The notes: generated by a model not told the origin, from the letters alone. A stretch of 51,028 nucleotides of DNA from Deltaproteobacteria bacterium HGW-Deltaproteobacteria-1 (GCA_002840635.1 PHBN01000038.1:1-51028); one strand, 5' to 3'; counted from the stretch's first letter, positions 223 through 37,708 are shown. Translations and numbers: made by a program.

Positions 223-369
223 TGATTTAACACAATTCCCCTGCATAATTGAATTATACAAGGCGACCTGCCGGATGGATTAATTTGCTTGAATATCGGG
301 GATTTGTACAGGAGACGCTTCCCTAAAGTACCAAATTCCATCAAATGCGTGCAAAGTTGCTAAAAAGGC

Positions 370-396
370 ATTATAAGAATAACGAGGCTCTGTCAA
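370..396 (-). promoter_or_regulatory. sigma70-like promoter candidate for the ferredoxin gene
   Basis: Minus strand reads TTGACA (396..391), a 15-nt spacer, then TATAAT (375..370), about 150 nt upstream of the ATG at 222. The spacer is shorter than optimal. Confidence 0.3.
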
Positions 397-502
397 GAAA
401 AAAAGAGTAATGATTACTGGTTTGTGCCTATCATTCTCTTGTGATATTAAAGCTTTCCGAATTTTCTTTTCCGGCTGGCAACAGAATGACCGGCATATCC
501 AA

Positions 503-2530
503 TTAGATTTTAACCCAGCGTGCCGCTACTAGGGATGTCAGATTTGAGATCGTCCCCAGGATCCGGCGCTGTTCGGGGAGGAGATTTTTAAATTCGTATT
601 GCATACCCACTACACCTAATATCTCTTCATCCTGGGATTTAATCGGCAGAAAGCAGTAGGGGATACTCGGCAGCGTTTCCGTTCCCGCGCCGGCAATTTC
701 CCCGTGAGCAAATGTCCACTTAGCCACGGCCAGGTCATTTTGGTTAATTTCCAAATCCGGGTTGCTCTTAGCCCACAACTGTAAATCGCCTTTCTTTTCT
801 TTAAAGAGAACAAAGCAGGGGACATTAATGACCTTCTGAATATACTTGATCGTAATATTGCTGATGTCATTGATAATGGTCGTTCGCAGGAAGGCCAGGG
901 TGTTCATGGTTTCCTGCGAAAACGCAGCCAGTCCTTCCACCAATTGTTCCAGTGGGGGAAGGGTTAAGAATTCCTTGCTCATCTCTTCAATTAGAACAAC
1001 TCTCTCCAGCCTTAATTGCAGCGCGATGTTCTGTTTTTTTACAATCTTTACCAACTGACCGATTATTATTGCGGTAAAAAGGAAAACCAGTACATTGATT
1101 ATTTCTTTGGGATCTTTCATGGTAAAATTGTATCTGGGTATGGTGAAGAGAAAATCATAAATTAACAGACTTACGATTGAAGTAAATATGGACGGCCACA
1201 TTCCAAATAACAAAGCACTAACACTTGTAGCGATCAAATAGATATAAACCAGCGAAGACGGATCAACGATGCGTTGGAGAATCAGGTTAATCATGGTGAT
1301 CATCACAATCATGCCAAGTGCTTTTAAATAAGGTGACACGTTAAATGCCGCTCGTCTGGGGGGAGGAAGGATATCTTCTTTTTTCTCCTCAATGGTTGGC
1401 GTAATGAGATGGAGCTCGAAATCACCTGCGGCGCGAAGAAGACGGGAAGTGGGGGATCTTTTGAAAAATTCAACAATCGCCGGGCGTAGCGGTTTACCGA
1501 TGACAATTCGGGTAATGTTATTTTCCGTGGCAAAACGAATAATTTCCTCGGCAACATCATCGCCGGAAAGCGTCATGATTTTTGCGCCCAGTTCTTCGGC
1601 AAGATTGAGGGCATCCGTTAAATAAATTTTTGCCCGGCCCGATGGTTCGGTCAGCCCGGTAGGTAGAACATAAACGGCATACCATTCGGCATGAACATTC
1701 TTGGCAATGGCATAAGCCTTGCGGATGAGCTGTTTGGCATAGGGACTGTCCGCGATACAAACAACCAGCTTTTCCGTAGCAGGCCAGGGGCCGGCAATCG
1801 CCTTTGCCCTCATATAATTAATGAGCTCGCTGTCCATTTTCCGGGCAACCAGAGTCAACATGAGTTCGCGTAGCGCAAACAGATTGCCCCGCTGAAAAAA
1901 ATTATCAATGGCGCGCTGGGCCTGCGCAGGAAAATAGACCTTCCCCTCCTTTAATCTCTGGAACAGTTCTTCCCAGGGAATATCAACAACCTGCACCTCG
2001 TCGGTGCGGTCAAAAAAAGTGTCCGGCAATGTTTCCTGCATGCGTACGCCGGTGATCTTGGCCACAGCGTCATTCATGCTCTCAAAGTGCTGGATATTGA
2101 CGGTAGTGTGCACATCAATTCCATGTTCCAGTAACTCTTCAATATCCTGATACCGCTTGGGGTGGCGGCTGCCCTCGATATTGGTATGGGCAAGTTCATC
2201 AACCAGAACAACCGCAGGATGCCTTGTCAGAATTGCATCCAGATCCATTTCACTGACCAGAAGGCCTTTATATTCAATAGACTTTCGGGGTATGACTTCC
2301 AGGCCGGCAAGCAGTGCGTCAGTATCGGCGCGCTTGTGTGTTTCGACAATACCCGCGACGACATCCACGCCGCGTTTTTTCAATACGTGGGCCTCATTGA
2401 GCATGGCATATGTTTTGCCGACTCCCGGCGCATAGCCCAGAAATATTTTCAACCTTCCCTTTTTGACATCATCCTTTTCGATTTCTTTCAAAAGGGCATC
2501 GGGATCGGGTCTTAAATCTTTTTCTTCCAT
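503..2530 (-). CDS. kdpD: KdpD-type sensor protein without the histidine-kinase half (KdpD N-terminal domain, Usp-like domain, 4 TM segments, GAF-like domain)
   Basis: 675 aa. The N-terminus GRLKIFLGYAPGVGKTYAML is the KdpD P-loop signature. A hydrophobic block (MIVMITMINLIL...FLFTAIIIGQLV) is followed by a GAF-like end ...LLPEQRRILGTISNLTSLVAA. No HisKA or HATPase motifs are present, and the ORF stops where E. coli KdpD continues into the kinase. Confidence 0.85.
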   Translation of the reverse strand: MEEKDLRPDPDALLKEIEKDDVKKGRLKIFLGYAPGVGKTYAMLNEAHVLKKRGVDVVAGIVETHKRADTDALLAGLEVIPRKSIEYKGLLVSEMDLDAILTRHPAVVLVDELAHTNIEGSRHPKRYQDIEELLEHGIDVHTTVNIQHFESMNDAVAKITGVRMQETLPDTFFDRTDEVQVVDIPWEELFQRLKEGKVYFPAQAQRAIDNFFQRGNLFALRELMLTLVARKMDSELINYMRAKAIAGPWPATEKLVVCIADSPYAKQLIRKAYAIAKNVHAEWYAVYVLPTGLTEPSGRAKIYLTDALNLAEELGAKIMTLSGDDVAEEIIRFATENNITRIVIGKPLRPAIVEFFKRSPTSRLLRAAGDFELHLITPTIEEKKEDILPPPRRAAFNVSPYLKALGMIVMITMINLILQRIVDPSSLVYIYLIATSVSALLFGMWPSIFTSIVSLLIYDFLFTIPRYNFTMKDPKEIINVLVFLFTAIIIGQLVKIVKKQNIALQLRLERVVLIEEMSKEFLTLPPLEQLVEGLAAFSQETMNTLAFLRTTIINDISNITIKYIQKVINVPCFVLFKEKKGDLQLWAKSNPDLEINQNDLAVAKWTFAHGEIAGAGTETLPSIPYCFLPIKSQDEEILGVVGMQYEFKNLLPEQRRILGTISNLTSLVAARWVKI

Positions 2531-2550
2531 GAGGTTACCTTTGTACTAGT

Positions 2551-3129
2551 TTACCGCTGAACCGCGATACTCTCAAGATCAATATTCAATTGTAAAACGT
2601 TGACCCGTTCCATTCCCCAAATCCCCAGAAGAGGGCCTTCCGTGTTTTGATGGATTATTTTTTCGATGACGGATTGGGGAATCTTTCTTTCCCGGGCGAT
2701 TCGTGATGCCTGGATTCGTGCGGCTTCTACACTGATATGCGGATCAAGACCGCTTGCGGACGACAGCACCAAATCGGCGGGAATGGGCATATTCGAGGGC
2801 AATCCATTTTCCCTGCGAACGAGTTCAATACGCCCTTGGACCTGCTTTAATAGTTTTGCGCTGGATGGCGCCAGATTACTTGCCGACGAATTACTCGCGT
2901 CATAGGGGGGATCAATGGCGGATGGCCGTCCATGAAAATATTCAGGGCGGTTGAATGATTGCCCCAGAAGCTTTGATCCAATGACGATGTCGTTTTGTTT
3001 AATGATACTGGCATTGGATTGCCGGGGAAATACGGTTTGTGATACTGCCGTTATGGCGAGTGGATAAATCAATCCGCAAATGATTGATAATCCCGCAAAA
3101 ACCAGGATGGACCGTTTCAGTTGCAACAT
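2551..3129 (-). CDS. kdpC: potassium-transporting ATPase subunit C
   Basis: 192 aa with a single N-terminal TM segment and conserved KdpC motifs ([13 protein letters not shown]). AGGAG lies 8 nt upstream of the ATG. It sits between kdpB and kdpD. Confidence 0.9.
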
Positions 3130-5158
3130 ACCGCATCTCCTTTATAATAAGTGTAACGTCGATATTAGAAGACGTCGATATTAGAAGATCAATTATTTTT
3201 ATGCCGGCAAAAGGCAGTATTAACCCTCCTATGCCGTAAATTCCGAGATTCCGGCGCAGCAGAGCTGACGCGTTAGATGGAATATAACGCACACCGCGCA
3301 GCGCCAGAGGAATCAGTATGGGTATGATGATGGCATTGAAAATTACTGCCGAAAGAACGGCGCTTTCGGGACTGGAAAGATGCATGATGTCGAGTATTCT
3401 GAGCTGAGGATAGCCAACAATAAAGATGGCCGGGATGATGGCAAAATATTTAGCCACATCATTGGCGACACTGAAAGTTGTCAGCGCGCCTCGGGTTATG
3501 AGAATCTGTTTGCCGATTTCCACCAGATCCAGAAGCTTGGTCGGGTTGGAATCCAGATCAACAATGTTGGCGGCTTCGCGGGCTGCCTGTGTTCCGGCAT
3601 TCATTGCCACGGCGACATCCGCCTGAGCCAGCGCCGGCGCGTCATTTGTGCCATCGCCGATCATGGCTACCAGATGTCCTTTCTCCTGATAGTTGCGAAT
3701 CAGCTCCAATTTTGTCGCCGGTTTGGCCTCGGCCACAAAATCATCGACACCCGCCTCCGCCGCAATGGTGGCCGCGGTCATCGGGTTATCGCCGGTAATC
3801 ATGATGGACTTAATCCCCATTTGCCTGAGTTTGGCAATCCGGCCGCTGATACCCTCTTTGAGAACATCTTTGAGGCGAACCGCGCCGAGAATTTGTTCAT
3901 CCTGCGCAATCAAAAGGGGCGTTGAACCTTCGGCGGCAATAGATGCCACAATATCCTGTGCTTTGGCTGGCAATGGATTGTTCTGCGCTGAAATAAAATC
4001 CCTCACCGCGTCAAACGACCCTTTTCTGATTCGATGACTGTTCCAGTCGATACCGCTCATCCGCGCCTCGGCGCTAAAGGGAAAAAAGACAGCACCTTCG
4101 GGAGCCCGGATATCACTGCCGCGCATGCCCAGTTTTTCTTTTGCCAGAACAACAATACTTCTTCCTTCCGGCGTATCATCAGCAAGAGAAGATAATAACG
4201 CGGCATTGATTAATTCCTTCTCTTTCCCCTCCGTGAGAGCAATAAACTCCGTTGCCATTCTATTGCCCAGCGTGATCGTGCCGGTTTTATCCATGAGCAC
4301 CACATCGACATCTCCCGATGCTTCCACAGCCCGGCCACTTGTCGCTATAAAATTGTACTGTAACAATCTATCCATGCCCGCTATTCCTATGGCCGGCAAT
4401 AATCCACCGATGGTTGTGGGCATTAAGCACACCAGAAGGGCAATGAGCATGGCCGCGTCAACAGGTACGCCCATGTAAGCGGCAAAATATTTTAAAGTGA
4501 CAACCACAACGATAAATACAACAGTCAGCGCTATTAAAAGCAGATTGAGCGCCCGTTCATTGGGCGTTTTTTGTCTTTTCGCGCCCTCAACCATGCCGAT
4601 CATCTGATCGAGAAAACTTTCCCCGGGATTGGCGGTAATGCGAACGGTTATTTTTCCAGAAAGCACGCGGGTGCCCCCGGTCACACCGCTGCGGTCTCCT
4701 CCGTATTCCCGAATGACGGGCGCGGATTCTCCGGTGATGGCCGATTCATCTATCAGTGCCGTCCCGACGGCCACTTCACCATCTCCGGGGATCGTGTCGC
4801 CGTCTTCAAGAAGGATCAGATCTTCTTTTTTCAACTGCAGGGCGGATATGGTTTCTATACTGCCGTCATTCAATAGCCGTTTTGCTTTGGCCTCGGAGCG
4901 GTTCTTTTTGTCGGCAAAATTGGCAAATATAAGCGTGAACCACAGCCACAAGGTAATCTGCAAATCAAAGGTCATCCCGTGGCCGGTAAAAATATCATAT
5001 ATAACAATAAACGTCGTTGCGATGGTCACTATCTCCACAATAAACATCACGGGACTTTTAATCATCATCAGCGGATTGAGCTTTGTAAGCGATTCCTTCA
5101 GCGCGGGGATGATAAACTTTGTCTGCCAGATCTTGATTTTTTTCGATTTCATTTTCAT
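2999..5158 (-). CDS. kdpB: potassium-transporting P-type ATPase subunit B; 3' end altered by a 16-bp duplication (ancestral stop at 3142..3144)
   Basis: P-type ATPase motifs are present: [36 protein letters not shown]. The ORF as given reads 130 nt into kdpC. See the findings for the duplication and for a probable missing AEGRGKAQA segment. Confidence 0.9.
3156..3187. repeat. perfect 16-bp tandem duplication (ACGTCGATATTAGAAG x2) inside the kdpB 3' end
   Basis: Read directly: 3156..3171 is identical to 3172..3187. Confidence 0.95.
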
Positions 5159-20600: not shown

Positions 20601-21320
20601 ATGAGGAATCTGCGTATTGCTTTTGGATTATTGACGACGCTGCCATTCGGAATACGGGGAAGCTGGCAGCCCGGCGACAGCGGCCGGGCCGGAATCTGGT
20701 ATCCGATGGTCGGTATTGTGATCGGCGGATTGACCTGGCTTGTATGGTACGTGCTGAAACAGTATTTTCCACCTCTGGCCGTTGGCGTCATGACACTCGT
20801 GGTGTGGGTCTGTCTGACCGGCGGACTGCATCTCGACGGATTGGCGGACTGCTGCGATGGTTTACTGTCTTCAAATGTTCCCGAACGGCGTTTGGAAATC
20901 ATGAAAGACCCGCATCTGGGAACGTTTGGCGGCATCGGCCTGATTCTGGTTTTGTTTTCCAAAATCGTGGCGTTGAGTATCCTCACATCTTCAAACGGTC
21001 TTGGCATCATTCTCGCTGCAACGGTCAGCCGCTGGATGATCCTGCCCGCTTCGCTAATGCCGCTTGCCAATCCCGACGGAATGGCCGCTGATTTCGCTTC
21101 AGGATTCAAGCGGAGTGTCGTTTTTATTTCCGCGGTTTTTCCGCTTGGCCTTGCTTGTTTGCTCGGCATTCCGGGGTTTTTTGCATTGGTTACCGCCGGG
21201 GTTGCAGCGGCCGCCGTGCTGATGCTTTCTTATCGCCGTATAAACGGTGTGACCGGTGATGTTTTCGGTATGCTGGTCGAGGTGGTAGAAGTAGCTGTTT
21301 TGCTGAGTTTAACTGTATGA
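20601..21320 (+). CDS. cobS: adenosylcobinamide-GDP ribazoletransferase (cobalamin synthase)
   Basis: Polytopic 239-aa protein with the GGLHLDGLADCCDG motif. Confidence 0.88.
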   Translation: MRNLRIAFGLLTTLPFGIRGSWQPGDSGRAGIWYPMVGIVIGGLTWLVWYVLKQYFPPLAVGVMTLVVWVCLTGGLHLDGLADCCDGLLSSNVPERRLEIMKDPHLGTFGGIGLILVLFSKIVALSILTSSNGLGIILAATVSRWMILPASLMPLANPDGMAADFASGFKRSVVFISAVFPLGLACLLGIPGFFALVTAGVAAAAVLMLSYRRINGVTGDVFGMLVEVVEVAVLLSLTV

Positions 21321-22117
21321 TAGAAACGAATGGTTTTTCTTTCAGGCTGGGCACGACCTCCTACATCATTCCCGCGGATATTTTGTCCAATGTTCGGTAT
21401 CTGGCGGGGAAAGTACGGGATGTGGAGCTGGTACTGTTCGATGTGGACGATGGCATGAACAATCTGCCGTCGAAAGAGGAAATTGATGAGCTTCGCAGGA
21501 TCGGTTCTGACCAGGACCTGACATACACTGTCCACCTGCCTCTGGATTTGCGTCTGGCAGATGACGGCACTGCGTGCCATGCCTCTATCGACAAGGCCCG
21601 CAGGGTCATCGAAAGCAGTGGCAGGCTTGATCCGTGGGCTTATGTATTGCACCTAAACGGGAAATCAGTCCGTAACGGCGCATCGTCAGGAGTGATGCGG
21701 TACTGGCTGGAACAGGCCGTCCGATCGCTGGAAATTGTCGGAGAATGCGCGGGAGGAGTCGAAAAACTGGCTGTCGAAAACCTGGAAGGTTATCCGCTTG
21801 ATTTCTACGAACCGGTGCTGAAACGGATTGCCGTGAGCCGTACAGTGGACATTGGACATCTTTGGCTCGACGGTCACGATGCGGGTGCTTACTTGCACGG
21901 GGCTCTGCCGCGAACGCGCGTCGTTCACATCCACGGAATCGACGGACGCGATCACAGGTCGCTGGCGAATGTATCGCAGGAAAAACTGCGTGCCGTCCTC
22001 AATGAACTTGTTCGCACCGGCTACCGGGGTGTCCTAACTGTTGAAGTATTTTCAGAGGTGGACTTTCTGACCTCCTCTGCGGCTATTCAAGCAGCGATGA
22101 AAGGAGAACAGGTATGA
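21317..22117 (+). CDS. xylose-isomerase-like/AP-endonuclease-2 TIM-barrel protein, candidate cobamide-remodelling phosphodiesterase (CbiR-like)
   Basis: 266 aa with metal-ligand-like HLPLD, HLNG, VENLE, DIGH and HIHG motifs. ATGA overlaps couple it to cobS upstream and cobU downstream. Confidence 0.55.
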   Translation: MIETNGFSFRLGTTSYIIPADILSNVRYLAGKVRDVELVLFDVDDGMNNLPSKEEIDELRRIGSDQDLTYTVHLPLDLRLADDGTACHASIDKARRVIESSGRLDPWAYVLHLNGKSVRNGASSGVMRYWLEQAVRSLEIVGECAGGVEKLAVENLEGYPLDFYEPVLKRIAVSRTVDIGHLWLDGHDAGAYLHGALPRTRVVHIHGIDGRDHRSLANVSQEKLRAVLNELVRTGYRGVLTVEVFSEVDFLTSSAAIQAAMKGEQV

Positions 22118-22665
22118 TTCCTGAAATCCCCGTAAACGGCCTGACGCTTTTTTTGGGTGGCGCGCGCAGCGGCAAAAGTTCTTTCGCAGAAAAAATCGCC
22201 CGGGATTCAGGAAAATCCGTTCTTTACATCGCCACGGCCGCAGCCGGCGATGATGAAATGGCCGAGCGCATCCGCAACCATCAGGCATCGCGTCCGGCCC
22301 AATGGCAGACGCTTGAATGTCCGCTCAATATCGGCCGTCGTCTTGACGCACCGCGGGCCGAAGTGGTGATCGTTGACTGCATTACTCTGCTGGTCAGCAA
22401 TATTCTCCTTTCCTTTCGGGAAGAAACGCCTGCCGAAACCATCATGCACAAAGTCAGTATTGAAATGGAAGAAATTATTGACGCGCAGTCCAGGATCAGC
22501 GGGCAGTGGCTGGTCGTGTCCAATGAAGTGGGCCTGGGTCTTGTGCCGCCCTATCCGCAGGGACGCATTTACCGCGACGTGCTGGGCCGGGCCAATCAAA
22601 TTCTGGCTAAGGCCGCGAGTCGTGTCATCCTGATGGTTGCCGGAATTCCGATGGTGGTTAAGTAG
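22114..22665 (+). CDS. cobU: bifunctional adenosylcobinamide kinase / cobinamide-phosphate guanylyltransferase
   Basis: 183 aa. P-loop GGARSGKSSFAE, then VVSNEVGLGLVP. Confidence 0.88.
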   Translation: MIPEIPVNGLTLFLGGARSGKSSFAEKIARDSGKSVLYIATAAAGDDEMAERIRNHQASRPAQWQTLECPLNIGRRLDAPRAEVVIVDCITLLVSNILLSFREETPAETIMHKVSIEMEEIIDAQSRISGQWLVVSNEVGLGLVPPYPQGRIYRDVLGRANQILAKAASRVILMVAGIPMVVK

Positions 22666-23691
<1,026 letters not shown>

Positions 23692-23704
23692 ATGCCGATG
23701 CGGG

Positions 23705-24463
23705 GTGGGAATGATTATGAAGCGCAAAATCATTAAAATTGACGAAGAAAAATGCACCGGCTGTGGATTGTGCGTGCCGGGCTGTGCCGAAGAAGCCATT
23801 AAAATCATCGACGGCAAGGCCAAGCTGGTCAGCGATGTTTTCTGCGATGGATTGGGGGCCTGTATCGGTGAGTGTCCCGAAGGCGCGCTTACTCTTGAAG
23901 AGCGTGACGCGGATCCCTTTGACGTAAACAAAGTTCAGGAGGCGATTGCCCCGAAAAAAGGCCAGGCAGTGCCGCAAAATCTTCATGTCATGGGCGGAGC
24001 CGGCTCTTGTCCCGGTTCAGCTCACGCCGTCTTTGAACGAAAGGATCAGGTTCCCGGCAAGGCGCAAACGTCCGGGCAGCCGTCCGAGCTGACTCACTGG
24101 CCGGTTCAACTGCACCTGATAAATCCCGCCGCCGACTTTTTCCGCGGCAAAGACGTCGTGCTGGCCGCGGATTGCGTCGCGTTTGCCCTGGGGGATTTTC
24201 ATGAGCGATTTTTAAAAGGCAAAAGCCTGGCCATTGCGTGTCCCAAGCTCGATGAGGGATTGGATGAATATGTTGAAAAAATCCGGCGGATGGTGGATGA
24301 GGCCCGGATCAACACGCTCACCGTGGTGACGATGCAGGTGCCCTGCTGCCGGGGATTAATGCAGATTGCCCAGGCCGCCCTGCAGAAGTCAACAAGAAAA
24401 GTGCCGCTGAAATCTGTGGTCATCAGCATCCAGGGTGACGTGCTTTCTGAGGAATGGGTGTAG
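23705..24463 (+). CDS. 4Fe-4S dicluster-domain protein with a Cys-rich C-terminal domain
   Basis: CTGCGLCVPGCAEEA and CDGLGACIGECPEGA motifs, with a later VPCCRG. 252 aa. Confidence 0.7.
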   Translation: MGMIMKRKIIKIDEEKCTGCGLCVPGCAEEAIKIIDGKAKLVSDVFCDGLGACIGECPEGALTLEERDADPFDVNKVQEAIAPKKGQAVPQNLHVMGGAGSCPGSAHAVFERKDQVPGKAQTSGQPSELTHWPVQLHLINPAADFFRGKDVVLAADCVAFALGDFHERFLKGKSLAIACPKLDEGLDEYVEKIRRMVDEARINTLTVVTMQVPCCRGLMQIAQAALQKSTRKVPLKSVVISIQGDVLSEEWV

Positions 24464-24517
24464 GATAGGGCAAGCCCTGTTAACAAATGGATCATGCATC
24501 ATCAGGGAGAATGAACG

Positions 24518-25192
24518 ATGCCTTTCTTTACAGCCGATGACGGTGTCCGTCTGCATTATCAGACAAGCGGCGCCGGGAAACCGGTTTTGTTCATTCACGG
24601 ACTGACGGCAAGTTCCCTTTTCTTCCGAAAACAAATTCCCGAACTGGCAGGACGCTTTCAAGTCATTGCACCCGATTTGCGCGGCCATGGACTGTCTGAG
24701 GCAGCAACGGATCACCTGACCATCCGGAGGCTGGCTGAAGATTTAAGACAGTTGATCGACCACCTCAATTTATCTGAAATATCATTGATCGGCTGGTCGA
24801 TGGGCGCGCACGTGATTTTCGAATACATCAAGAACTATTCCTGCGCCGGAATAGAAAAAATTCTGATTATCGAGAAAAAGAACAACGCATCGGTCATCGC
24901 CGCTTTCTGGATCGCCATGGCGGTGCAGGATTACCGGCCGGTTTTGAAAAGCATTTCGGTTCCCTGCCTCCTGGTTTACGGAACCGAAAGCAATTATTAT
25001 CCCGCAGCAAATTATGACTACATGCAAAAGCAGATACCCGATGCCAGGGTTGCCGCTTTTGAGGGCTGCGGGCATGCCCTGCATATTCAGGACCCGGAAT
25101 TATTCAACCGCATGGCAATGGATTTTTTACTGACGGGTTTTTCTGCTTGCGAGGGCCAGCAGGACGCCTCCGAGCCCGAAGGTGATGGCTAA
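24518..25192 (+). CDS. alpha/beta hydrolase (unusually short lid region)
   Basis: FIHGLTAS, nucleophile elbow GWSMGA, C-terminal GCGHALHIQDPE. Only about 18 residues occupy the position where homologues usually carry a 50-70 residue cap. Confidence 0.7.
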   Translation: MPFFTADDGVRLHYQTSGAGKPVLFIHGLTASSLFFRKQIPELAGRFQVIAPDLRGHGLSEAATDHLTIRRLAEDLRQLIDHLNLSEISLIGWSMGAHVIFEYIKNYSCAGIEKILIIEKKNNASVIAAFWIAMAVQDYRPVLKSISVPCLLVYGTESNYYPAANYDYMQKQIPDARVAAFEGCGHALHIQDPELFNRMAMDFLLTGFSACEGQQDASEPEGDG

Positions 25193-27642: not shown

Positions 27643-28385
27643 TTAACGTCTCCATGGAGGCGGCGGTGCGTAGCCGTTATTGTTCCAGATCCGGTTTGAT
27701 GAATATCGATCGGATGAGCCATAGCAATCAACGATATTCTTTTTGCAGAGAGTTTCACGCCATTCGTATTTAATCAGAATGGACTCCGCGGCCTTTCTTT
27801 CGGGATTGAATGAAACACGGTAAGAAGGTGAATATTCTTCCCGGCCATAGCCGGTTCGGCTTCGGAGCGATCCCTCTTCCACGGCGCAGAGAAAAAACCG
27901 TCCTTATAGGGACGGAAGCGACGCTTTTCGGGATAAGCCACCACGGCGATAACTCCCATGGCGGACTCGTCGCCAAATGCCGCGGCATACGAATCCGGGA
28001 CATCGGTAAAGTAGAAACGGTTGATGGTGTCCTGTGCCGACCGCCAGCCTGAATATTCATTGGTCGTGTAGGGTTCAAGAACATACATTCTTTCATGATT
28101 TTTGAGCCATGACTTTTGTCCCGAAATGATATTCCTGCCGTCCACTGCGACAACAACGCCAACTCTCCGGTTGAGTTTGTTGCGTACAACAATCCGATAA
28201 TGATCGCCTTTTACAGCTTCTGCGTAAACCTTTTTCAGCGCCGGATGATCTTTCACGTGGTAGAATGGCAGCATGCGGCCGTTATCGGACACAATGCTGA
28301 CTTCTATCGTATCGCCGATGGTTTCGGCAGCGGCAAAGCTGACCCACATGAATAAAACCGCACACACTGCTAATAATGATTTCAT
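27643..28385 (-). pseudogene. secreted hypothetical protein split by a frameshift in an A6 run (27892..27897)
   Basis: AGGAGG lies upstream of the ATG at 28385. Signal peptide MKSLLAVCAVLFMWVSFAAA. The ORFs 27774..28418 and 27643..27882 join into one 247-aa frame if the run were A7. Confidence 0.6.
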
Positions 28386-28597
28386 GACGTTTCCTCCTTT
28401 GATGTGAAAATGTTCCATTCTTTTTGTTATTTAGACAAAACCAAAGGGGGAAAAGTTCCAGCCTCTTTTTTTATAACTGCCTATTTTACTTACAAACTGA
28501 AATACTCAATATTATTAGACATTGTACGAATAATAGGAAAATCGGCTCGTCCGGACACTGTGAACAGGGCACTACTTTTTATATAATTATTATCCTC

Positions 28598-28626
28598 TTG
28601 ACAAACAAGACACCCTCTCCTATATT
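28598..28626 (+). promoter_or_regulatory. near-consensus sigma70 promoter upstream of the GC-rich cassette
   Basis: TTGACA (28598..28603), a 17-nt spacer, then TATATT (28621..28626), 45 nt before the ATG at 28671. It is embedded in AT-rich DNA. Confidence 0.5.
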
Positions 28627-28670
28627 CATGCCCGCTAAAATGAAACTGTTATCATTTTAAAAAACGAAAT

Positions 28671-30965
28671 ATGACATCCAGCGCCGTCCCTCCCGCGAAC
28701 ACTGAAAAATCACTGCCCAATTCCTGGCGTGGCGATGTGCAAAACTGCCTCGTCGCCGGTGAAACCGTTGAGTCCTGGGTGGAGACCGATCTCGACGCCC
28801 GCCTCCACTTTGCCGACAACCTGGTGGTTATCACCAACCGACGCCTTTTGGCGCACATTCCGGGCAACGGCGAATGGAAAAGCTGGGATTTCCGTGCGGG
28901 ACTCTCCCTCCGCCATCGCAGCCATGTCGGCGTAGGCACGCTGGAGCTGGTGGACGACGGCGGTCGTCTGGCCATCTGGCACTATACCATGAACCGCAAC
29001 ATGGCCGCCCTCAGCGTCAGGAGGGCTTTTGAGGAGCAACTCGATAGCACCATCACCGGCCAGCCGGTGGCTAAACATGAGGAAATCCTATGTCCCAGGT
29101 GCAAATTGCCCCTTGAGCCTGGTATCGAGGAGTGTCCGATCTGCACCCGGGAAACGCAGACACCGCCTTCCACATGGACGCTCTTCCGCCTGTGGCGCTT
29201 TGCCAGGCCTTACAAGGGTCGTCTGCTGGCTGGCTTCCTGCTGACACTGGCCTCCACCGGCGCCACCCTGGTACCTCCCTACCTGACCATGCCGCTAATG
29301 GACAACGTGCTGATCCCGTTCCAGAACGGCAAGCCCATCGACGTTCGCCTGGTAGAGCTATACCTCAGCGGCTTGCTGGGCGCCGCCCTGCTTGCCTGGG
29401 GCTTGGGCTGGGCCCGCACCTATATTCTGGCCCTGGTGTCCGAGCGGATCGGTCGTGACCTGCGTACCGCTACCTTTGAGCACTTGTTACAGCTGTCGCT
29501 GGAGTACTTCGGCGGCAAGCGCACCGGTGACCTGATGGCCCGCATCGGTTCGGAGACGGACCGCATCAACCTCTTCCTCTCGCTGCACCTTCTGGATTTC
29601 GCCACAGACGTTCTGATGATCCTCCTCACTGCGATAATCCTTTTCTCCATCCATCCATGGCTGGCGCTGGTCACCCTGCTCCCTCTGCCCATCATCGCCT
29701 GGATGATCCATAACGTGCGCGACCGCCTGCGCACCGGTTTCGAGAAGGTGGACCGCATTTGGGCCGAGGTTGCCAACGTGCTGTCTGACGTCATCCCCGG
29801 TATCCGTGTGGTCAAGGCCTTCGCCCAGGAAAAGCGCGAGGCCGCCCGTTTCCGTGAAGCCAACTTACATAACCTGGTATTAAACGACCGCATTAACAAG
29901 ATATGGGCCCTCTTCAGTCCCACAGTGACTCTGTTCACCGAAGTCGGTCTGCTGGTTGTGTGGGGTTTCGGCATCTGGCAAATCAGCAAAGGCGAGATCA
30001 CCGTCGGCGTGCTCACGGCCTTCCTTGCTTACATCGGTCGATTCTACACTCGCCTCGATTCCATGAGCCGCATTGTTTCAGTGACCCAGAAGGCCGCCGC
30101 AGGCACCAAGCGCATCTTCGATATCCTCGATCACGTTTCCAGCGTACCGGAGCCTGTCAACCCGGTGCATCTCATGGACGTTCGCGGCGAAATTGAGTTA
30201 CGCAACGTCGGCTTCCGCTATGGCACCCGCGCTGTAACGCATGATGTCAGCCTGACGATCAAGTCCGGCGAAATGATCGGACTCGTCGGTCATTCCGGCT
30301 CCGGCAAGACCACTCTTGTGAATCTCATCTGCCGCTTCTACGACGTAACCGAGGGCTCCGTGCTTATCGACGGTGTGGACGTGCGTTCTGTGCCGGTGGC
30401 CGAGTTCCGCAGAAACATCGGCCTGGTTCTGCAGGAGCCCTTTCTCTTCTTCGGCACTATCGCCGAAAACATCGCCTATGGCAAACCGGACGCCACCCGC
30501 GAAGAAATCATCGCCGCCGCCCGCGCAGCCCATGCCCACGAGTTTATCCTGGGCCTGCCCAATGGCTATGACTCTCTGCTGGGTGAGCGCGGCCAGGGCC
30601 TCTCTGGCGGCGAGCGCCAGCGTATATCCATCGCCCGGGCCCTCCTCATCAATCCGAAGATCCTCATCCTTGACGAGGCCACCTCCTCAGTCGACACCGA
30701 GACCGAGAAGGAAATCCAGAAGGCCCTGGACAACCTCGTACGCGGCCGCACTACTATTGCTATCGCCCATCGCCTGTCCACCCTGCGTAAGGCCGACCGA
30801 CTCGTGGCCATGGACCGCGGCCAGGTGGTGGAAATGGGCAGCCACGATGAACTGATGGCTAAGGAAGGCCACTATTACCGTCTCTACCAGGCCCAGGCCC
30901 GCAATGTCGATACCGAACCGGAAATCCCGCGTGCCGTTGACCGGTTCAGGGAGCACGCAGCATGA
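28671..30965 (+). CDS. ABC exporter (fused TMD-NBD, type I) with a ~165-aa N-terminal PH-like domain plus CxxC-x10-CxxC zinc ribbon
   Basis: 764 aa. N-terminal GETVESWVETD...LVVITNRRLL (bacterial PH-like), CPRCKLPLEPGIEECPIC at 29091..29144, six TM helices, Walker A GHSGSGKTT, signature LSGGERQR, Walker B ILILDEATS, H-loop IAHRLST. Confidence 0.9.
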   Translation: MTSSAVPPANTEKSLPNSWRGDVQNCLVAGETVESWVETDLDARLHFADNLVVITNRRLLAHIPGNGEWKSWDFRAGLSLRHRSHVGVGTLELVDDGGRLAIWHYTMNRNMAALSVRRAFEEQLDSTITGQPVAKHEEILCPRCKLPLEPGIEECPICTRETQTPPSTWTLFRLWRFARPYKGRLLAGFLLTLASTGATLVPPYLTMPLMDNVLIPFQNGKPIDVRLVELYLSGLLGAALLAWGLGWARTYILALVSERIGRDLRTATFEHLLQLSLEYFGGKRTGDLMARIGSETDRINLFLSLHLLDFATDVLMILLTAIILFSIHPWLALVTLLPLPIIAWMIHNVRDRLRTGFEKVDRIWAEVANVLSDVIPGIRVVKAFAQEKREAARFREANLHNLVLNDRINKIWALFSPTVTLFTEVGLLVVWGFGIWQISKGEITVGVLTAFLAYIGRFYTRLDSMSRIVSVTQKAAAGTKRIFDILDHVSSVPEPVNPVHLMDVRGEIELRNVGFRYGTRAVTHDVSLTIKSGEMIGLVGHSGSGKTTLVNLICRFYDVTEGSVLIDGVDVRSVPVAEFRRNIGLVLQEPFLFFGTIAENIAYGKPDATREEIIAAARAAHAHEFILGLPNGYDSLLGERGQGLSGGERQRISIARALLINPKILILDEATSSVDTETEKEIQKALDNLVRGRTTIAIAHRLSTLRKADRLVAMDRGQVVEMGSHDELMAKEGHYYRLYQAQARNVDTEPEIPRAVDRFREHAA

Positions 30966-31429
30966 GTACCCTCAACCTTCAATTGGTCCGCAATCCCTTT
31001 GGCAGACTGATGCTCACCACCGCCCAGGGCACCGAGGAAGAAGTTGTTCCAGTGCGATCCTTTCCCATTGCCGCCCCGGAAAATAGCATTTCCCTGGTGA
31101 GCATGGATGGCCACGAACTGGCCTGGATCGAACATCTTGCCGACCTGCCCGACGCCCAGCGCCGATTGGTGGAAGAAGAACTGGCCAGCCGCGAGTTTGT
31201 GCCTGAGATCCGTGCCATTAAAACCATTTCCAGTTTCGCGACGCCCAGCACATGGCAGGTGGACACCGACCGCGGTCCCTTCGCCCTGGTGCTTGAGAGC
31301 GAGGATGACATCCGCCGTATTTCCCGGACCATGCTCATGATTTCCGACAGCAACGGCATCCAGTTCCTGGTGCGTGATCTGACCAAACTGGACCGGAGCA
31401 GCCGCAAGTTACTGGATGGTTTCCTATGA
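30962..31429 (+). CDS. DUF1854-family protein
   Basis: 155 aa. The start overlaps the ABC stop (ATGA). The sequence pattern (PFGRLMLT...VRSFPI...ISLV...EL..I..L..LP...R.L...EL..REF.PEI..I) fits my memory of DUF1854 proteins that accompany such transporters next to cphA. Confidence 0.7.
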   Translation: MSTLNLQLVRNPFGRLMLTTAQGTEEEVVPVRSFPIAAPENSISLVSMDGHELAWIEHLADLPDAQRRLVEEELASREFVPEIRAIKTISSFATPSTWQVDTDRGPFALVLESEDDIRRISRTMLMISDSNGIQFLVRDLTKLDRSSRKLLDGFL

Positions 31430-31541
31430 TTCACTTTGATAAAATAAGTAAAGTGATCGATAATTTTGACATCCAATCCGATGTGAAAACGATACCAGGC
31501 GATCCCCCGCATCCTGCGCGGGTACCCGGAAAGACACTATT

Positions 31542-33739
31542 ATGAGCAAAAAAGATATCGAATTCCTGAAGATCGTTCCCCTGCGCGGCCCTAACATGTG
31601 GACCTATCGTCCCGTGCTGGAGGCCTGGGTCAACATCCATGGCCTGGAGGATACCAACTCCAGCGCTTTACCCGGATTCTACGAGCGTCTGTCAGCCTGG
31701 CTCCCCTCCCTGGTTGAGCATCGCTGCAGCTATGGGGAGCGGGGCGGCTTCCTGCGCCGGGTGAAAGAGGGCACCTGGCCCGGTCATATCCTGGAGCACG
31801 TCACCCTGGAACTGCAAAACCTGGCCGGCCTCCCCGGCGGCTTCGGCAAGGCCCGCGAGACCAACCGCCGTGGAATCTACAAAGTGGTTATACGAGCCTG
31901 GCAGGAGGATGTCACCCGCGCTGCCCTTTATGCCGCCCGCGATCTGATCCTGGCGGCCATGGAGGACCGCTCCTTCGATGTGGCCGGCACCATCGAGCGC
32001 CTCACCGACATGGCGGACTCTCTCTGTCTCGGTCCCAGCACGGCTAGCATTGTTGATGCCGCAACCGAACGAGGCATCCCCACCATCCGTCTTCTGCCCG
32101 GCGGCAACCTGGTGCAGATCGGTTACAGTGCCGCCATGCGCAGGATATGGACAGCGGAAACCGACCGGACCAGTGCAATCGCCGAAACCATTTCCCGCGA
32201 CAAGGACCTGACCAAGACATTGCTTTCCTCCTGTGGCGTCCCCGTACCCGAAGGCCGCGAGGTGGACAGCGCGGGAGATGCCTGGGAAGCCGCCCAGAAC
32301 ATCGGTCTGCCGGTCTGTGTCAAACCCATCGACGGCAATCACGGTCGCGGTGTCTTTATCGACGTAAAGACCAGAGAAGAAGTGGAAATGGCCTATTCCT
32401 TTGCCGTCAATGAAGGCAGTGGCGTTCTCGTCGAGCGATCCATTCCGGGCACCGAGCACCGTCTGCTCATTGTCGGCGGCAAGCTGGCCGCCGCTACCCG
32501 CGGCGACGTAGTGCATGTAGAAGGCGACGGCAAATCCACCATGAGGGAACTGATCGAGATTCAGATCAATTCCGACCCGCGCCGCGGACCGACCGAACTG
32601 CATCCGCTCTCCGGCATTATTATAGATTCCATTGTCACCATGGAGCTGGCTCGCCAAGGCTTTAACGCGGAATCCGTTCCGGCAGCGGGCAAAAAAATTC
32701 TGATCCAGCGTACGGACAGCCACGCCTACGACGTTACCGACGAGGTACACCCTGACAATGCTGTCCTGGCCGCTTTGGCCGCACGAATCATCGGCCTCGA
32801 TATCGCCGGCATCGATCTGGTAGCGGAAAATATATCGAAACCCCTGTTCGAGCAACGCGGAGCGATCGTCGAGGTCAACGCCGGCCCCAGCCTGCTCATG
32901 CACCTTAAGCCAGCCGTCGGCCAGCCACGCCCGGTAGGCAAGGCCATTGTTGATTACCTCTTCCCCAAAGGCGAGACGGGGCGCATTCCCATCGTCGGCA
33001 TTTCGGGTTCCAGGGGCAAGACGTCAGTTGCCCGTTGCCTCGACCACCTGGTTCGTCTGTCCGGCAAGCATGTCGGTCTTGCCAGCAGCGACGGCCTCTT
33101 CCTGAATGGCCGCCACGTGCAGAAGACTGACGCCTCCAACTGGACTTCCGCCCGCCGGTTGCTGCTGAACCGTTCCGTTGAAACCGCCATTCTGGAGAAT
33201 GGCATCCGTGCTATTCTCGGCGAGGGTCTGGCTTACGATCGTTGTCAGGTGGGCGTGTTGACCAATCTGATGATCTCTACAAGGTGTTGCGCACCCAGGT
33301 GGATGTCGTTCTCAAGAGCGGCACTTGCATCCTCAATGCAGCTGACCCGCAATTGGTGGAAATGGCAAAACTCTCCGACGGTGAGGTGATCTTTTTTGCC
33401 CGGGAGGCTGACAGTCCTGTTGTAATCGAGCATTGCGCCGGAGGTGGGCGCGCCGTTATCGCGAAGAAAAACGAGATCATGCTGATTGCCGGCAATATTG
33501 AAACCCGCCTGGCCAGTCTGACCGATATTCCCAGCGTGCAGTTGGGTAACGAATCCTTTCGCATTGACAACGTCCTGGCCGCTTTGGCTGCCGGCTGGGC
33601 TTTGAATGTACCGCTGGAATTGCTGTCTGCCGGCATCAATGCTTTCGAACAGGAAGAACTGCACCCCAAAGGTCGTAACAACAACGGCCGCAAGCGCCAG
33701 AAGAAGAACAGACAGGGCAACCGTGCCCATTTGAAATAG
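31542..33739 (+). pseudogene. cphA: cyanophycin synthetase paralogue 1 (N domain, ATP-grasp, truncated Mur-ligase-like domain); frame change at ~33268-33272
   Basis: LRGPNMWTYRPVLEAWV, LGPSTASIVDAA, ATP-grasp core and P-loop GISGSRGKTS. Reading switches from the 31542..33389 frame to the 33242..33739 frame between VGVLTNL and DDLYKVLRTQ. It ends in a basic tail, GRNNNGRKRQKKNRQGNRAHLK. Confidence 0.85.
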
Positions 33740-33751
33740 AAAGAGGAATTC

Positions 33752-36153
33752 ATGGAAGTTTCACGCATCCGGGCCCTGCGGGGTCCCAACCTGTGGAGTC
33801 GGAATACGGCCATCGAGGCCATCGTTACGTGCAACGAGAACGAGCGCTCCCTCGACGCCCTCCCCGGTTTCGAAGAACGCCTGCGGGAACGATTTCCGGA
33901 AATTGGTTTTCTGAATGCCACCGGTCATTACAAAGATGTGCCCCTGGCCCGGGTCCTGGAATTTTCCGTTCTGGGCCTGCAGGCCCAGGCCGGTTGTCCT
34001 GTGACCTTCAGCCGCACATCGGAGACCATCAATAGTGGCACCTACCAGGTGGTGGTCGAATACAGCGAGGAAGATGTCGGACGGCTTGCCTTCGATCTGG
34101 CCGAACAACTCATCAAGGCCGCACTTGAAAATAAGCCCTTCGACCGTGCCAACGCTCTTAGCCGCCTCAAGAAATTGGATGAGAATGTCCGCCTCGGCCC
34201 CTCCACTGCCTCCATCGTCGAGGCCGCTGTTTCCCGTGGCATCCCTTACCGCCGACTGACCCAGGGCAGCCTCGTACAATTCGGCTGGGGCAGCAAGCAG
34301 CGTCGCATTCAGGCCGCCGAGACCGATCTCTCCAATGCCATTGCCGAATCCATTGCCCAGGATAAAGAACTAACCAAGCAATTACTGCATGCCACGGGTG
34401 TGCCGGTGCCTTTGGGCCGCCCGGTCACCAGCGCTGAGGATGCGTGGACCGCCGCCCAGGAAATCGGCGGCCCGGTAGTGGTGAAACCCCGTTATGGCAA
34501 TCAGGGTAAAGGCATTTCGGTCAACATCCAGACATGCGAGGAGATCACGGCGGCCTATAACACGGCCATCGAATTTTGCGATGAAGTCCTGGTGGAGCGT
34601 TACCTGCCGGGTCACGACTACCGCTTCCTGGTCATCGGCAACAAGCTGGTTGCCGCTGCCCGCCGCGACCCGCCACAGGTAATCGGTGATGGTATACACA
34701 CCGTGCGCGAATTGGTCGACCAGGTGAACGCCGATCCGCGTCGCGGCGAAGGCCATGCCACGTCCCTTACCAAGATCCGCTTTGATGACATCGCCCTGTC
34801 TCGCCTGGTCATGCAGGGTTTCGACGCCAACTCCGTGCCGCCCAGAGGCACCCGCATCATCCTGCGCAACAATGCCAACCTCTCCACCGGTGGCACCGCC
34901 ACCGACATCACCGACGACGTCCATCCGGAACTGGCTGCCTGCGCAGAGGCCGCCGCCCAGACCGTTGGCCTCGACATCTGCGGTATCGATGTAGTCTGCG
35001 AGACGGTATTGAAACCCCTGGAAGAACAGGGAGGCGGCATCGTCGAGGTGAACGCGGCCCCCGGCCTGCGCATGCACCTTTCGCCCTCCTATGGCAAGGG
35101 TCGCCCTGTGGGGGAAGCCATCGTTTCCATGATGTTCAAGCCGGGTGAGGATGCCCGCATTCCTGTCGTGGCTGTTGCCGGGACGAACGGAAAGACCACT
35201 ACAACGCGCCTCATCAGTAATATCCTGGCCAGGAACGGCAGGCGTGTGGGCCTGACCAGTACCGACGGCGTCTACGTTGAAGGCAGGCGTATTGACAGAG
35301 GTGACTGCAGCGGCCCTAAAAGCGCTCGCAACGTCTTACTGCATCCCTGTGTAGACATTGCCGTGTTTGAGACCGCACGTGGCGGCGTGCTGCGTGAGGG
35401 TCTCCGGCGATGGCTGCCACCTGCCCGGGTAGTGTCATCTACTTCGCCCGCGACAGCTTCCATCCGGTCATAGCTACTCACCGCGCTCAGGGGAAACGTG
35501 TGGTCTATGCCGAAGGCGACTACATCGTCCGTGCCGAAGGCAGGGACGAGCATCGTATTCCCCTTGCTGCCATCCCCATCACCGGCGGCGGCACCTTCGG
35601 CTTCCAGATCGAGAATGCCATGGCGGCCACGGCAGCCTGCTGGGCCCTGGGACTGTCCTGGGACACGATCTCCGCCGGTCTTGCTGGCTTCGTGAACGAC
35701 GCCCGGACGGCGCCTGGACGGTTCAACGTCTTCAACTACCACGGCGCCACTCTCATCGCCGACTACGGGCACAATCCGGACGCCATCCGGGCACTGGTCG
35801 ACGCCATAGAGACCATGCCGGCCAAAAAGCGGTTGGTGGTCATCAGTGGCGCCGGTGATCGCCGCAATGAAGATATCCGCCGTCAGACGGAAATTCTCGG
35901 CACCGCCTTCGACGAGGTCATCCTTTACCAGGATGCCTGCCAGCGCGGCCGTCAGGATGGTGAAGTCCTGACCCTCCTGCGTGAAGGCCTCTGCGGGGCC
36001 GAACGCACCTGCCACATCGAGGAGATCTACGGCGAGTTTCTGGCCATTGATAATGCCTTCAACCGCCTCAAAAGAGGCGATCTCTGCCTGATCCTCATCG
36101 ACCAGGTGGAAAAGGCCCTTGATCACATCGCCAGACGCATCGCCGAGGACTGA
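33752..36153 (+). pseudogene. cphA: cyanophycin synthetase paralogue 2 (full architecture) with an internal gap and frame change at ~35404-35409
   Basis: LRGPNLWSRNTAIEAIV, LGPSTASIVEAA, P-loop GTNGKTTT. After ARGGVLREGL the frame changes and resumes at AATCPGSVIYFARD. About 57 codons that are present in paralogue 1 and in reference CphA are absent. The C-terminal PGRFNVF...DYGHNPDA...GAGDRR region is intact. Confidence 0.85.
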
Positions 36154-36247: not shown

Positions 36248-36691
36248 ATGAATAATTTAAAGAATTATCGTCATTATCTTTTAATTCTGCCGCTGTTTTT
36301 TGTATCCTGTTACCCCGTGGCATATAAAAATCTTGAGTGCACACATTATTATGGCGGTTCCACTCAATCCATGCTTGTAACGCCGGTGACAAATCCTTAC
36401 ATGGTAGAAGCAACACAAATTACAATTAATAATTCTGATGCTGAAGGAGAGATGGTCAAAACAAATTTTCTTTTTAAGGTTGTCTATGTTTTGCCTCCAG
36501 CCGATGATGCTGCGATTAATATTTATGTTTATTATCTCTCGGATGCAGGGCAAGTGCCTGTTCATCAGGTGAAGTATTTGCCTCCATTTCCAGTTCGGGA
36601 TGACGACCAGCCATTTGGATTTACGGGCTTACAAAATGTTTATGAACCCACTCTGGGACGAGTCTTTCAATATTGCTGCCGCTGGAAATAA
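36248..36691 (+). CDS. hypothetical lipoprotein
   Basis: 147 aa. Signal peptide with lipobox LFFVSC. AT-rich, and no recognisable domain. Confidence 0.5.
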   Translation: MNNLKNYRHYLLILPLFFVSCYPVAYKNLECTHYYGGSTQSMLVTPVTNPYMVEATQITINNSDAEGEMVKTNFLFKVVYVLPPADDAAINIYVYYLSDAGQVPVHQVKYLPPFPVRDDDQPFGFTGLQNVYEPTLGRVFQYCCRWK

Positions 36692-36709: not shown

Positions 36710-37708
36710 ATGCAAATATTTCGAATAATATGTTTTTTGATATTTCTTTTAATTTTCCCCAGGGCAGGTTTTGCTCACGACCAGATTGTGCGGGTCAACT
36801 TCGTGGGAGACGTAATGATAGCAATGCTGCCGGGTGACCTTATTATAAAAGGCCGGGACCCTTTTACTGGATTTGCTGATATTTTTAAATCCGGTGATAT
36901 TAATATAGGAAACCTGGAAACATCGGTTGCGTCAGGTGGTAAGCCATTGAGCAAGCCGTATGTTTTTCGGGCAACTCCTGCAGCAGTACCCGTCTTAAAA
37001 AAGTATTTTCATGCCATGTCACTGGCCAATAATCATACGGGAGATTATGGTCAAAGCGCCTTGCAGGAAACATTTCAAAACCTGAAAAAGGGCGGACTTA
37101 ACTACTTTGGAGCCGGCTATAATTTATCTGAAGCGCATACCCCGCTGATCTTTGAGCGAAAGGGATTACGAATTGCTCTTTTAGGATACAACGAATTTTT
37201 TCCAAGACAATTTGAAGCGGGCGCAAGCAGGCCGGGAGTTGCCTGGAGTTCTGAAGATGAACAGGTGATTGCCGATATTAAAAGAACGCTGAAGCAATAT
37301 GGCGCAGATATTGTGATCACTTACATGCATTGGGGTTGGGAAGACGAGCCGCTTCCCAGTGAAAGACAACGAACCCTGGCTCGCAAAATGATTGATGCCG
37401 GTGCCACCGTTGTGATAGGCAGCCATCCGCATATCCTTCAAACCGTTGAATCCTACAAAGGGGGCTTGATTGCATATAGTCTGGGTAATTTCGTATTCGA
37501 TGAATATGATGATGACGCTGGTTGTACCGGCTGGCTTCTTCGATTAAATTTTGATCGCAAAGGTCTTTTGAGTTGGGACACCATCGTTTCATATATTGAT
37601 CCAAAAACCGGTTTCCCAAATCCCAGACTGAATGTGAAAAGTCCCTGCGGAAACAGGCAACACCCTGAGATTGGCTTCTGCGTTGCAGGAAAGCCTTTGA
37701 AAGAGTGA
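36710..37708 (+). CDS. CapA-family (PGA_cap) metallophosphatase-like protein
   Basis: Signal peptide, then VNFVGDVM, GNLET, ANNH, HWGWE and GSHPH motifs, characteristic of the CapA/YwtB family. Confidence 0.8.
   Translation: MQIFRIICFLIFLLIFPRAGFAHDQIVRVNFVGDVMIAMLPGDLIIKGRDPFTGFADIFKSGDINIGNLETSVASGGKPLSKPYVFRATPAAVPVLKKYFHAMSLANNHTGDYGQSALQETFQNLKKGGLNYFGAGYNLSEAHTPLIFERKGLRIALLGYNEFFPRQFEAGASRPGVAWSSEDEQVIADIKRTLKQYGADIVITYMHWGWEDEPLPSERQRTLARKMIDAGATVVIGSHPHILQTVESYKGGLIAYSLGNFVFDEYDDDAGCTGWLLRLNFDRKGLLSWDTIVSYIDPKTGFPNPRLNVKSPCGNRQHPEIGFCVAGKPLKE

Follow-up and report, generated by a model that had tools for sequence, protein, structure and literature searches.

What does an ATP-binding cassette (ABC) half-transporter with an N-terminal cytoplasmic head do beside the genes for cyanophycin synthesis, and how is it tied to the DUF1854 protein encoded directly behind it? 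These questions are raised by a locus at positions 28671–31429 of a 51,028-nt stretch of DNA (the window, hereafter) from Deltaproteobacteria bacterium HGW-Deltaproteobacteria-1 (PHBN01000038.1). The locus comprises two genes on the + strand, both recognised as open reading frames (ORFs) and assigned by Pfam and NCBIfam: one for the half-transporter (28671–30965; 764 aa, PKN88297.1) and one for the DUF1854 protein (30962–31429; 155 aa, PKN88298.1). They are followed by two synthetase genes, the order in the window being ABC, DUF1854, cphA', cphA. The answer favoured here, in which our confidence is evenly balanced, is that these four genes form a module for the synthesis of a cyanophycin-type poly(amino acid) and for its passage, as polymer or as oligomers, through the inner membrane. 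Export of the CphA/CphA' product is favoured because four lines of evidence point towards it, namely published genetics, synteny, natural gene fusions, and the position of the head before the elbow helix of the transporter.

A named family with a conserved gene core

Both proteins of the locus belong to a curated, already named family that is biochemically uncharacterised. The transporter reaches 1406.6 bits against the NCBIfam equivalog NF052233, “cyanophycin metabolism-associated ABC transporter” (cutoff 880), in an alignment of residues 4–752 with model positions 4–753 of 766, which includes the head. Its neighbour reaches 222.6 bits against NF052234, “cyanophycin metabolism-associated DUF1854 family protein” (cutoff 150), and 170.6 bits against PF08909 (DUF1854; cutoff 26.8, E = 1.7e-50). 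Close relatives of PKN88297.1 and PKN88298.1 come from Smithellaceae, and one of them already bears the NCBIfam title. The original prediction had presented the pair as an uncharacterised unit and a new kind of exporter, a claim that does not stand in view of these two equivalogs and of the published proposal described below; the present analysis adds a description of the head at the level of domains, together with the comparative statistics.

That proposal comes from Price et al. (10.1101/072470), who found DUF1854 to be cofit with the ABC gene and with cphA/cphA' in two Betaproteobacteria, and suggested that DUF1854 is a subunit of an amino-acid polymer exporter. Whether a cyanophycin-like polymer is exported is, in other words, a question already posed in the literature. 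The same study reports motility or stress phenotypes for the mutants, the frequent absence of cyanophycinase from genomes carrying these genes, and the existence of rare ABC–DUF1854 fusions. The literature search found no other paper in which DUF1854 is discussed; a study of activated sludge describes a cluster of two cphA genes and an ABC transporter without cphB. The systems of Acidovorax 3H11 and Cupriavidus basilensis 4G11 treated by Price et al. (RR42_RS04420 and its neighbours) resemble the window in their domain order, including the head, in the adjacency of cphA' and cphA, and in the tight coupling of ABC and DUF1854 genes. Unlike these betaproteobacterial systems, the copy in the window belongs to Smithellaceae (Desulfobacterota), lies in a GC-rich block, and is linked to genes for a secreted CapA-like protein and a lipoprotein.

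Gene context was surveyed with one genome per species, DUF1854 being present in at least 583 species, and the 80 best loci were examined. The ABC gene stands directly upstream of DUF1854 in all 80 of them, and the head is present at every surveyed locus where the 5' end of the ABC gene is available. The link to cyanophycin synthetase genes, which had been proposed from the window by itself, extends to 70 of the 72 loci with enough flanking sequence, where cphA'/cphA are found within 10 kb. These genes are divergent and upstream in 44 of the 70 loci and co-directional and downstream in the remaining 26, so that the linkage survives rearrangement. Beyond the four core genes, ORF clustering across the 80 loci revealed nothing broadly shared; genes for a nirS-type cytochrome cd1 and the heme d1 genes, which come next in frequency, are confined to particular lineages. 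The conserved core is made up of a bicistronic ABC–DUF1854 unit and a cphA'–cphA unit.

In the window, the ATG of the DUF1854 gene overlaps the stop codon of the transporter gene in the sequence ATGA (30962–30965, + strand), as the original prediction had read it. The family as a rule keeps the two genes this close: of the 83 ABC–DUF1854 pairs compared, a number that includes the window's own, 48 overlap, 40 of them by the same 4 nt, and another 25 are separated by a gap of 20 nt or less. A profile search with DUF1854 against 1.84 billion representative proteins (E up to 0.001) returned 2101 clusters, most members of which are 150–180 aa long. Two natural fusions, P0317 (913 aa) and P0276 (866 aa), hold DUF1854 after the ATP-binding domain. 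P0317 keeps both the PH-like head and a CxxC-x10-CxxC motif and passes the two NCBIfam cutoffs (1069.8 and 154 bits), and P0276 has an apparently shortened head, the start of which was possibly called wrongly. The fusion P0317 is good evidence that DUF1854 acts as a cytoplasmic part of the transporter, present in a 1:1 stoichiometry. Strict adjacency, mostly overlapping or closely spaced genes, and natural fusions support DUF1854 as a dedicated partner of the transporter, a role already assigned to it in the original prediction.

DUF1854 itself is strongly conserved, with 44 of its 155 positions invariant among 25 sequences from Syntrophales and Betaproteobacteria. A sequence search of the PDB with it found nothing meaningful. 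In its AlphaFold2 model, the chain forms two subdomains rich in beta-strands, and a helix comes after each of them, with a predicted local distance difference test score (pLDDT) of 83 and a predicted TM-score (pTM) of 0.54. A common origin of DUF1854 and the head was also considered and was rejected, since the profile–profile comparison gave it a probability of 0.5%.

Regarding the core of the transporter, Pfam places ABC_membrane (PF00664) at residues 185–458 and ABC_tran (PF00005) at residues 524–672. The canonical motifs are all found, with Walker A at residue 540, LSGG at 644, Walker B including the catalytic Glu at 664, and an H-loop at 699. In its six-helix membrane domain, the ATP-binding domain behind it, and its intact motifs, the protein has the architecture of a B-family (type IV) ABC exporter, and the best-scoring characterised families in NCBIfam consist of exporters throughout (MsbA, HlyB, NdvA/ChvA for glucans, HepA, and TAP). 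Judged by these scores, the transporter is a distinct B-family exporter, because it falls under the cutoff of each of these families: it obtains 458.5 bits against MsbA (TIGR02203; cutoff 602), 419.4 against the HlyB-type type I secretion ABC (TIGR01846; cutoff 725.55), and 402 against the cyclic-glucan exporters NdvA/ChvA (cutoff 733). Among characterised relatives, MsbA and NdvA/ChvA score best against the core and share its order of six-helix membrane domain and ATP-binding domain, but these families come without the PH-like head, the zinc ribbon, and the DUF1854 partner.

On the + strand of the window, the elbow helix and the six-helix, exporter-type transmembrane domain are assigned to 29166–30110 by Pfam, AlphaFold2, and conservation, and the nucleotide-binding domain to 30111–30920 by Pfam ABC_tran, catalytic motifs, and conservation. 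Mean column conservation among 70 full-length orthologues is 0.88 for the membrane domain and 0.88 for the ATP-binding domain. Between the head and the first membrane helix lies the segment PPSTWTLFRLWRFARPY, nearly invariant both in 28 aligned heads and in the 70 orthologues, and the AlphaFold2 model of residues 1–183 predicts a helix of the elbow type at residues 168–177, ahead of the membrane domain.

The cytoplasmic head and its cysteines

Residues 1–165 of the transporter are matched by no Pfam family. No hydrophobic segment was detected among them, nor anywhere before residue ~223 at a strict Kyte–Doolittle threshold, and with ABC_membrane beginning at residue 185 this agrees with the original prediction that they precede the first transmembrane helix. 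The head was modelled with AlphaFold2 (residues 1–183) from an alignment of 28 homologous N-terminal regions, which resulted in a mean pLDDT of 84.6, rising to 94–98 across residues 20–130. The predicted topology consists of a short helix (residues 17–26), seven strands (33–106), and a long helix (107–129), that is, the seven-stranded bent beta-sandwich with a C-terminal helix cap that defines the PH/PTB superfold. When the model was compared with the PDB by Foldseek, members of this superfold (PTB, PH, FERM-F3, SSRP1, and Rtt106) made up most of the top 50 matches, including most of the highest-ranked ones, with probabilities of ~1.0, a best E-value of 2e-3, and target-normalised TM-scores of up to 0.66. 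Since no Foldseek match to the PDB reached E = 0.001, the assignment, made on a predicted model, holds at the level of fold class.

The model and its structural matches thus support a PH/PTB-like fold for residues ~15–130, predicted to be cytoplasmic and encoded by positions 28713–29060 of the + strand, in line with the PH-like beta-sandwich that the original prediction had suspected in this region. At the level of sequence, none of the 28 orthologous heads matched a PH-type Pfam profile, even at E up to 10, a sequence search of the PDB with the head gave nothing meaningful, and a search with the head alone returned 58 short gene fragments as its only matches. Mean column conservation of the PH-like domain is 0.62 among the 70 full-length orthologues.

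The PH-like domain is followed by a linker (29061–29165, + strand) with four cysteines arranged as a zinc-ribbon-like pair of knuckles. Their codons, from C141 at 29091 through C144 and C155 to C158 at 29142–29144, confirm the CPRC-x10-CPIC motif that had been reported at 29091–29144. Among the 28 aligned heads, C155 and C158 never vary and C141 and C144 hardly do; what look like exceptions are due to a one-column shift of the alignment or to frameshifted fragments. A check of conservation that accompanied the original prediction came out in its favour at the genome loci, where CxxC-x10-CxxC is found in 65 of the 70 full-length orthologues, with a spacing of 10 in every case, so that the motif goes beyond what chance would give. 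The other five have lost all four cysteines at once, and a low-complexity, acidic linker of about the same length stands in their place; these five come from Herminiimonas (L024, L039, and L075), Oxalicibacterium (L049), and Rubrivivax (L042).

The four cysteines fit a metal-binding unit, a putative zinc ribbon, because their loss is all-or-none. They form two CxxC knuckles of conserved spacing, which is the pattern of such a ribbon, and the Pfam zinc-ribbon profiles DZR, Zn_Ribbon_1, and Zn_ribbon_3 give weak, sub-threshold matches in most of the 28 heads (25 of them in the case of DZR). The region is predicted with a pLDDT of ~75, and mean column conservation of the linker is 0.57 among the 70 full-length orthologues. 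As the ribbon is gone in five lineages, it is dispensable and cannot be an indispensable sensor; the comparison of orthologues suggests instead that it serves structurally, as a spacer. The lineages without the ribbon exhibit no matching change at the conserved positions of DUF1854.

Proposed export of a polymer and its alternatives

According to the favoured explanation, the ABC protein would work as a catalytically competent, homodimeric B-family exporter of the MsbA/HlyB-like kind. Each protomer would hold its PH/PTB-like domain in the cytoplasm, placed by the zinc-ribbon spacer and the elbow helix at the cytoplasmic entrance of the membrane domain. Translational coupling would provide DUF1854 in roughly equal amounts, and this subunit would bind to the transporter from the cytoplasmic side, probably close to where the ATP-binding domain has its C-terminus. 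A docking module would be formed by the head, possibly together with DUF1854, that catches either the end of the polymer or the CphA/CphA' synthetase, and the docked substrate would then be fed into the transporter. The anatomy of the proteins, their conservation, synteny, coupling, fusions, and family membership are shown by the present analysis, whereas we infer that the head docks, where DUF1854 binds, and what the substrate is. Domains of the PH/PTB fold class commonly bind extended peptides. The head and DUF1854 are both consistently net acidic, a property that would, as weak evidence, suit an Arg-rich ligand. The frequent lack of cyanophycinase noted by Price et al. (10.1101/072470) argues against a role of the product in storage.

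Such a loading step would be analogous to those performed by the C39-like domains of HlyB-type transporters and by the carbohydrate-binding domain of Wzt, an analogy meant to picture how the unit may work and not to place it in either family. HlyB-type transporters and PCAT are likewise B-family half-transporters with an additional N-terminal cytoplasmic domain before the elbow helix, in their case a C39 or C39-like domain that binds the polypeptide substrate. Unlike this papain-like C39 domain, the head described here is predicted to combine a PH/PTB-like fold with a zinc ribbon. DUF1854 has no counterpart in HlyB/PCAT, and, contrary to HlyB-type systems, the module has no membrane-fusion or outer-membrane partner conserved across the 80 loci.

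With Wzm–Wzt, the module may share the idea of an accessory cytoplasmic beta-sandwich that recognises and loads a polymer, as the carbohydrate-binding domain of Wzt does for the O-antigen ABC exporter. On the other hand, Wzm–Wzt is a type V transporter with a separate membrane subunit, a C-terminal accessory domain, and a lipid-linked glycan as substrate, and has no sequence or fold relationship with the proteins of the window. PgsBCA/CapBCA also deliver to the outside of the cell a poly(amino acid) of non-ribosomal origin, poly-gamma-glutamate, which an ATP-dependent amide ligase assembles, and include a CapA-family (PGA_cap) protein, which is linked to the module in Syntrophales only; they differ from it in having no ABC transporter and a synthetase of another family.

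Several observations weigh against the export of a polymer by the module. To our knowledge, nobody has demonstrated an exported polymer, and MsbA-like exporters normally take lipids, peptides, and oligomers, not polymers of 25–100 kDa that do not dissolve at neutral pH. ORF clustering over the 80 loci revealed neither a periplasmic adaptor nor an outer-membrane partner conserved in the vicinity, and the linkage to CapA-like and lipoprotein genes is restricted to Syntrophales. Two Nitrosomonas loci (L064 and L080) hold the pair, with head and 4-nt overlap, without cphA or cphA' within 10 kb on either side. The Foldseek search with the DUF1854 model found only matches with low TM-score and high root-mean-square deviation (the Plk4 polo box and HIN-200 among others), a poor result that is likely due to the uncertain relative placement of the two subdomains in the model, as indicated by its pTM of 0.54. 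Correlation of distance matrices between the head and DUF1854 does not rise above phylogeny, through which all domains are correlated: partial correlations with DUF1854 are 0.35 for the PH-like domain versus 0.29 for the ATP-binding domain, with 0.25 for the membrane domain and 0.06 for the zinc ribbon. Finally, the CphA/CphA' enzymes of C. necator yielded no classical cyanophycin (Price et al., 10.1101/072470), so the substrate may be another polymer.

The alternative that survives best is that the exporter carries a small product, such as beta-Asp-Arg dipeptides, short oligomers, or arginine/aspartate overflow, and that the head and DUF1854 only modulate its activity. The B-family architecture would accommodate such cargo, as its characterised relatives carry lipids, peptides, drugs, and oligosaccharides, and the lack of a conserved outer-membrane or periplasmic partner points in the same direction. 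Moreover, cphA' presumably resembles truncated synthetases that act on dipeptides (cf. cyanobacterial CphA2). However, if the module handles a polymer, its tight linkage to two polymerising enzymes and its cofitness with them are easier to explain, and no peptidase for making small products is conserved in the module across the 80 loci, so that this explanation is considered unlikely.

Still less likely is the one closest to the original prediction, in which the head is a sensor of a small cytosolic ligand or of the state of the polymer and gates the exporter accordingly, and DUF1854 tethers cyanophycin granules to the membrane. Such tethering, like a part for the pair in the handling of beta-Asp-Arg, is speculative. 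A separate, conserved cytoplasmic head joined to the elbow helix is in a position from which it could affect gating, its PH domain has a conserved His-rich loop (consensus HHDHAGVG in the alignment of the 28 heads) that could bind a ligand, and the many invariant positions of DUF1854 would fit such a role. Nevertheless, no signature of a ligand-binding family was detected by Pfam in the transporter or in the 28 heads, and the zinc ribbon is dispensable in five lineages. Furthermore, many genomes with the module are devoid of cyanophycinase, and the mutants exhibit envelope and motility rather than nitrogen-storage phenotypes (10.1101/072470). That no product is transported, the ABC–DUF1854 pair being instead a membrane scaffold or an ATP-driven regulator of CphA/CphA', or else serving unrelated export for the same physiology, would agree with the two loci that have the pair without nearby cphA and with cofitness denoting a shared phenotype rather than a shared substrate, but is very improbable given that the membrane domain is as conserved as the ATP-binding domain, as expected of a working translocation pathway, that all catalytic motifs are intact, and that 70 of 72 loci have cphA linked to the pair.

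Polymer export by the four-gene module leads to a further proposal, tentative and rather to be doubted as it stands, that the head, the zinc ribbon, and DUF1854 constitute an undescribed substrate-loading apparatus, which would couple CphA/CphA' to the exporter so that the polymer is threaded out during its synthesis. Descriptions of cyanophycin usually present it as a store of nitrogen inside the cell; under this proposal, cyanophycin-like polymers would instead serve as material of the envelope or of the extracellular space in hundreds of species outside the cyanobacteria. If the module does export its product, the role of the polymer in these bacteria needs to be rethought, including wastewater Accumulibacter/Azonexus and syntrophic Smithellaceae, and phenotypes related to envelope, motility, biofilm, and stress would make sense. 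The domain map presented here, with a PH-like head, a dispensable ribbon spacer, an elbow helix, and a position for DUF1854, offers targets for mutagenesis and structural work.

Neighbouring genes and origin of the block

The two synthetase genes of the window lie on the + strand, cphA' at 31542–33739 and cphA at 33752–36153, and both are split there by short deletions (41 bp near 33270 and 166 bp near 35405, respectively). The former encodes a synthetase paralogue without the C-terminal part of the Mur-ligase-like domain, whereas the latter encodes a full-length cyanophycin synthetase. As taken from another assembly of the same organism, the intact CphA (856 aa) passes TIGR02068 with 992.6 bits (cutoff 850), and the intact CphA' (746 aa) passes PRK14016 (1021.9 bits, cutoff 877) and fails TIGR02068 (738.8 bits).

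Two promoter-like sites were recognised purely by their match to the consensus. The first candidate, TTGACA-17-TATATT (28598–28626, + strand; 11 of 12 matches), sits ~45 nt before the start codon of the ABC gene. The second (31436–31464; 10 of 12 matches) is located in the 112-bp gap between DUF1854 and cphA', and no terminator-like site was found after DUF1854 in the scan of the window. A candidate promoter at this place would fit gene pairs that are separable, as they are in the 44 divergent loci.

Downstream of cphA, the window encodes on the + strand a small predicted lipoprotein (36248–36691; 147 aa), with a signal sequence ending in ...LFFVSC and no Pfam or NCBIfam family matched, and a secreted CapA-like protein (36710–37708; 332 aa), with an N-terminal signal-like sequence and a match to PGA_cap (PF09587, 9.9e-72). 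The CapA-like gene is found in loci L001–L003, and both genes are absent from the betaproteobacterial ones; in L003, from Syntrophaceae, it and the lipoprotein gene are arranged differently, upstream of the ABC gene. The linkage of these two genes fits, weakly, the handling of a polymer outside the cytoplasm.

Comparison with five independent assemblies of the same organism revealed short deletions in the window: ~251 bp at 24875, ~63 bp near 27855–27860, the 41 bp and 166 bp already mentioned, and ~53 bp near 40150. Because of those of 41 and 166 bp, cphA' and cphA seem to be frameshifted in the window, although the five other assemblies have them intact, and judging from this comparison the deletions look like an artefact of assembly or record rather than pseudogenisation. 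As the stretch that holds the ABC–DUF1854 pair (27855–33270) is 100% identical to the other assemblies, the findings on this pair are unaffected by them.

The four-gene block (28671–36153) has a GC content of 0.54–0.62 in 2-kb bins, compared to 0.47 and 0.43 in the flanking bins. Identity to Rhodocyclaceae orthologues amounts to 85% for the transporter and 81–85% for CphA, values that are high for a cross-phylum comparison, and the transporter is 82–85% identical to those of Rhodocyclaceae/Azonexaceae and Syntrophaceae. Because of this contrast in GC content and the high identity to Rhodocyclaceae, the sequences suggest that the block was acquired horizontally, between Betaproteobacteria and Syntrophales. 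On a smaller scale, two assemblies (L084 and L086), whose positions 1–3575 correspond to 21304–24875 of the window, are 92.7% identical to it there and 100% identical across ABC–DUF1854, a pattern that suggests strain-level recombination or mixed populations.

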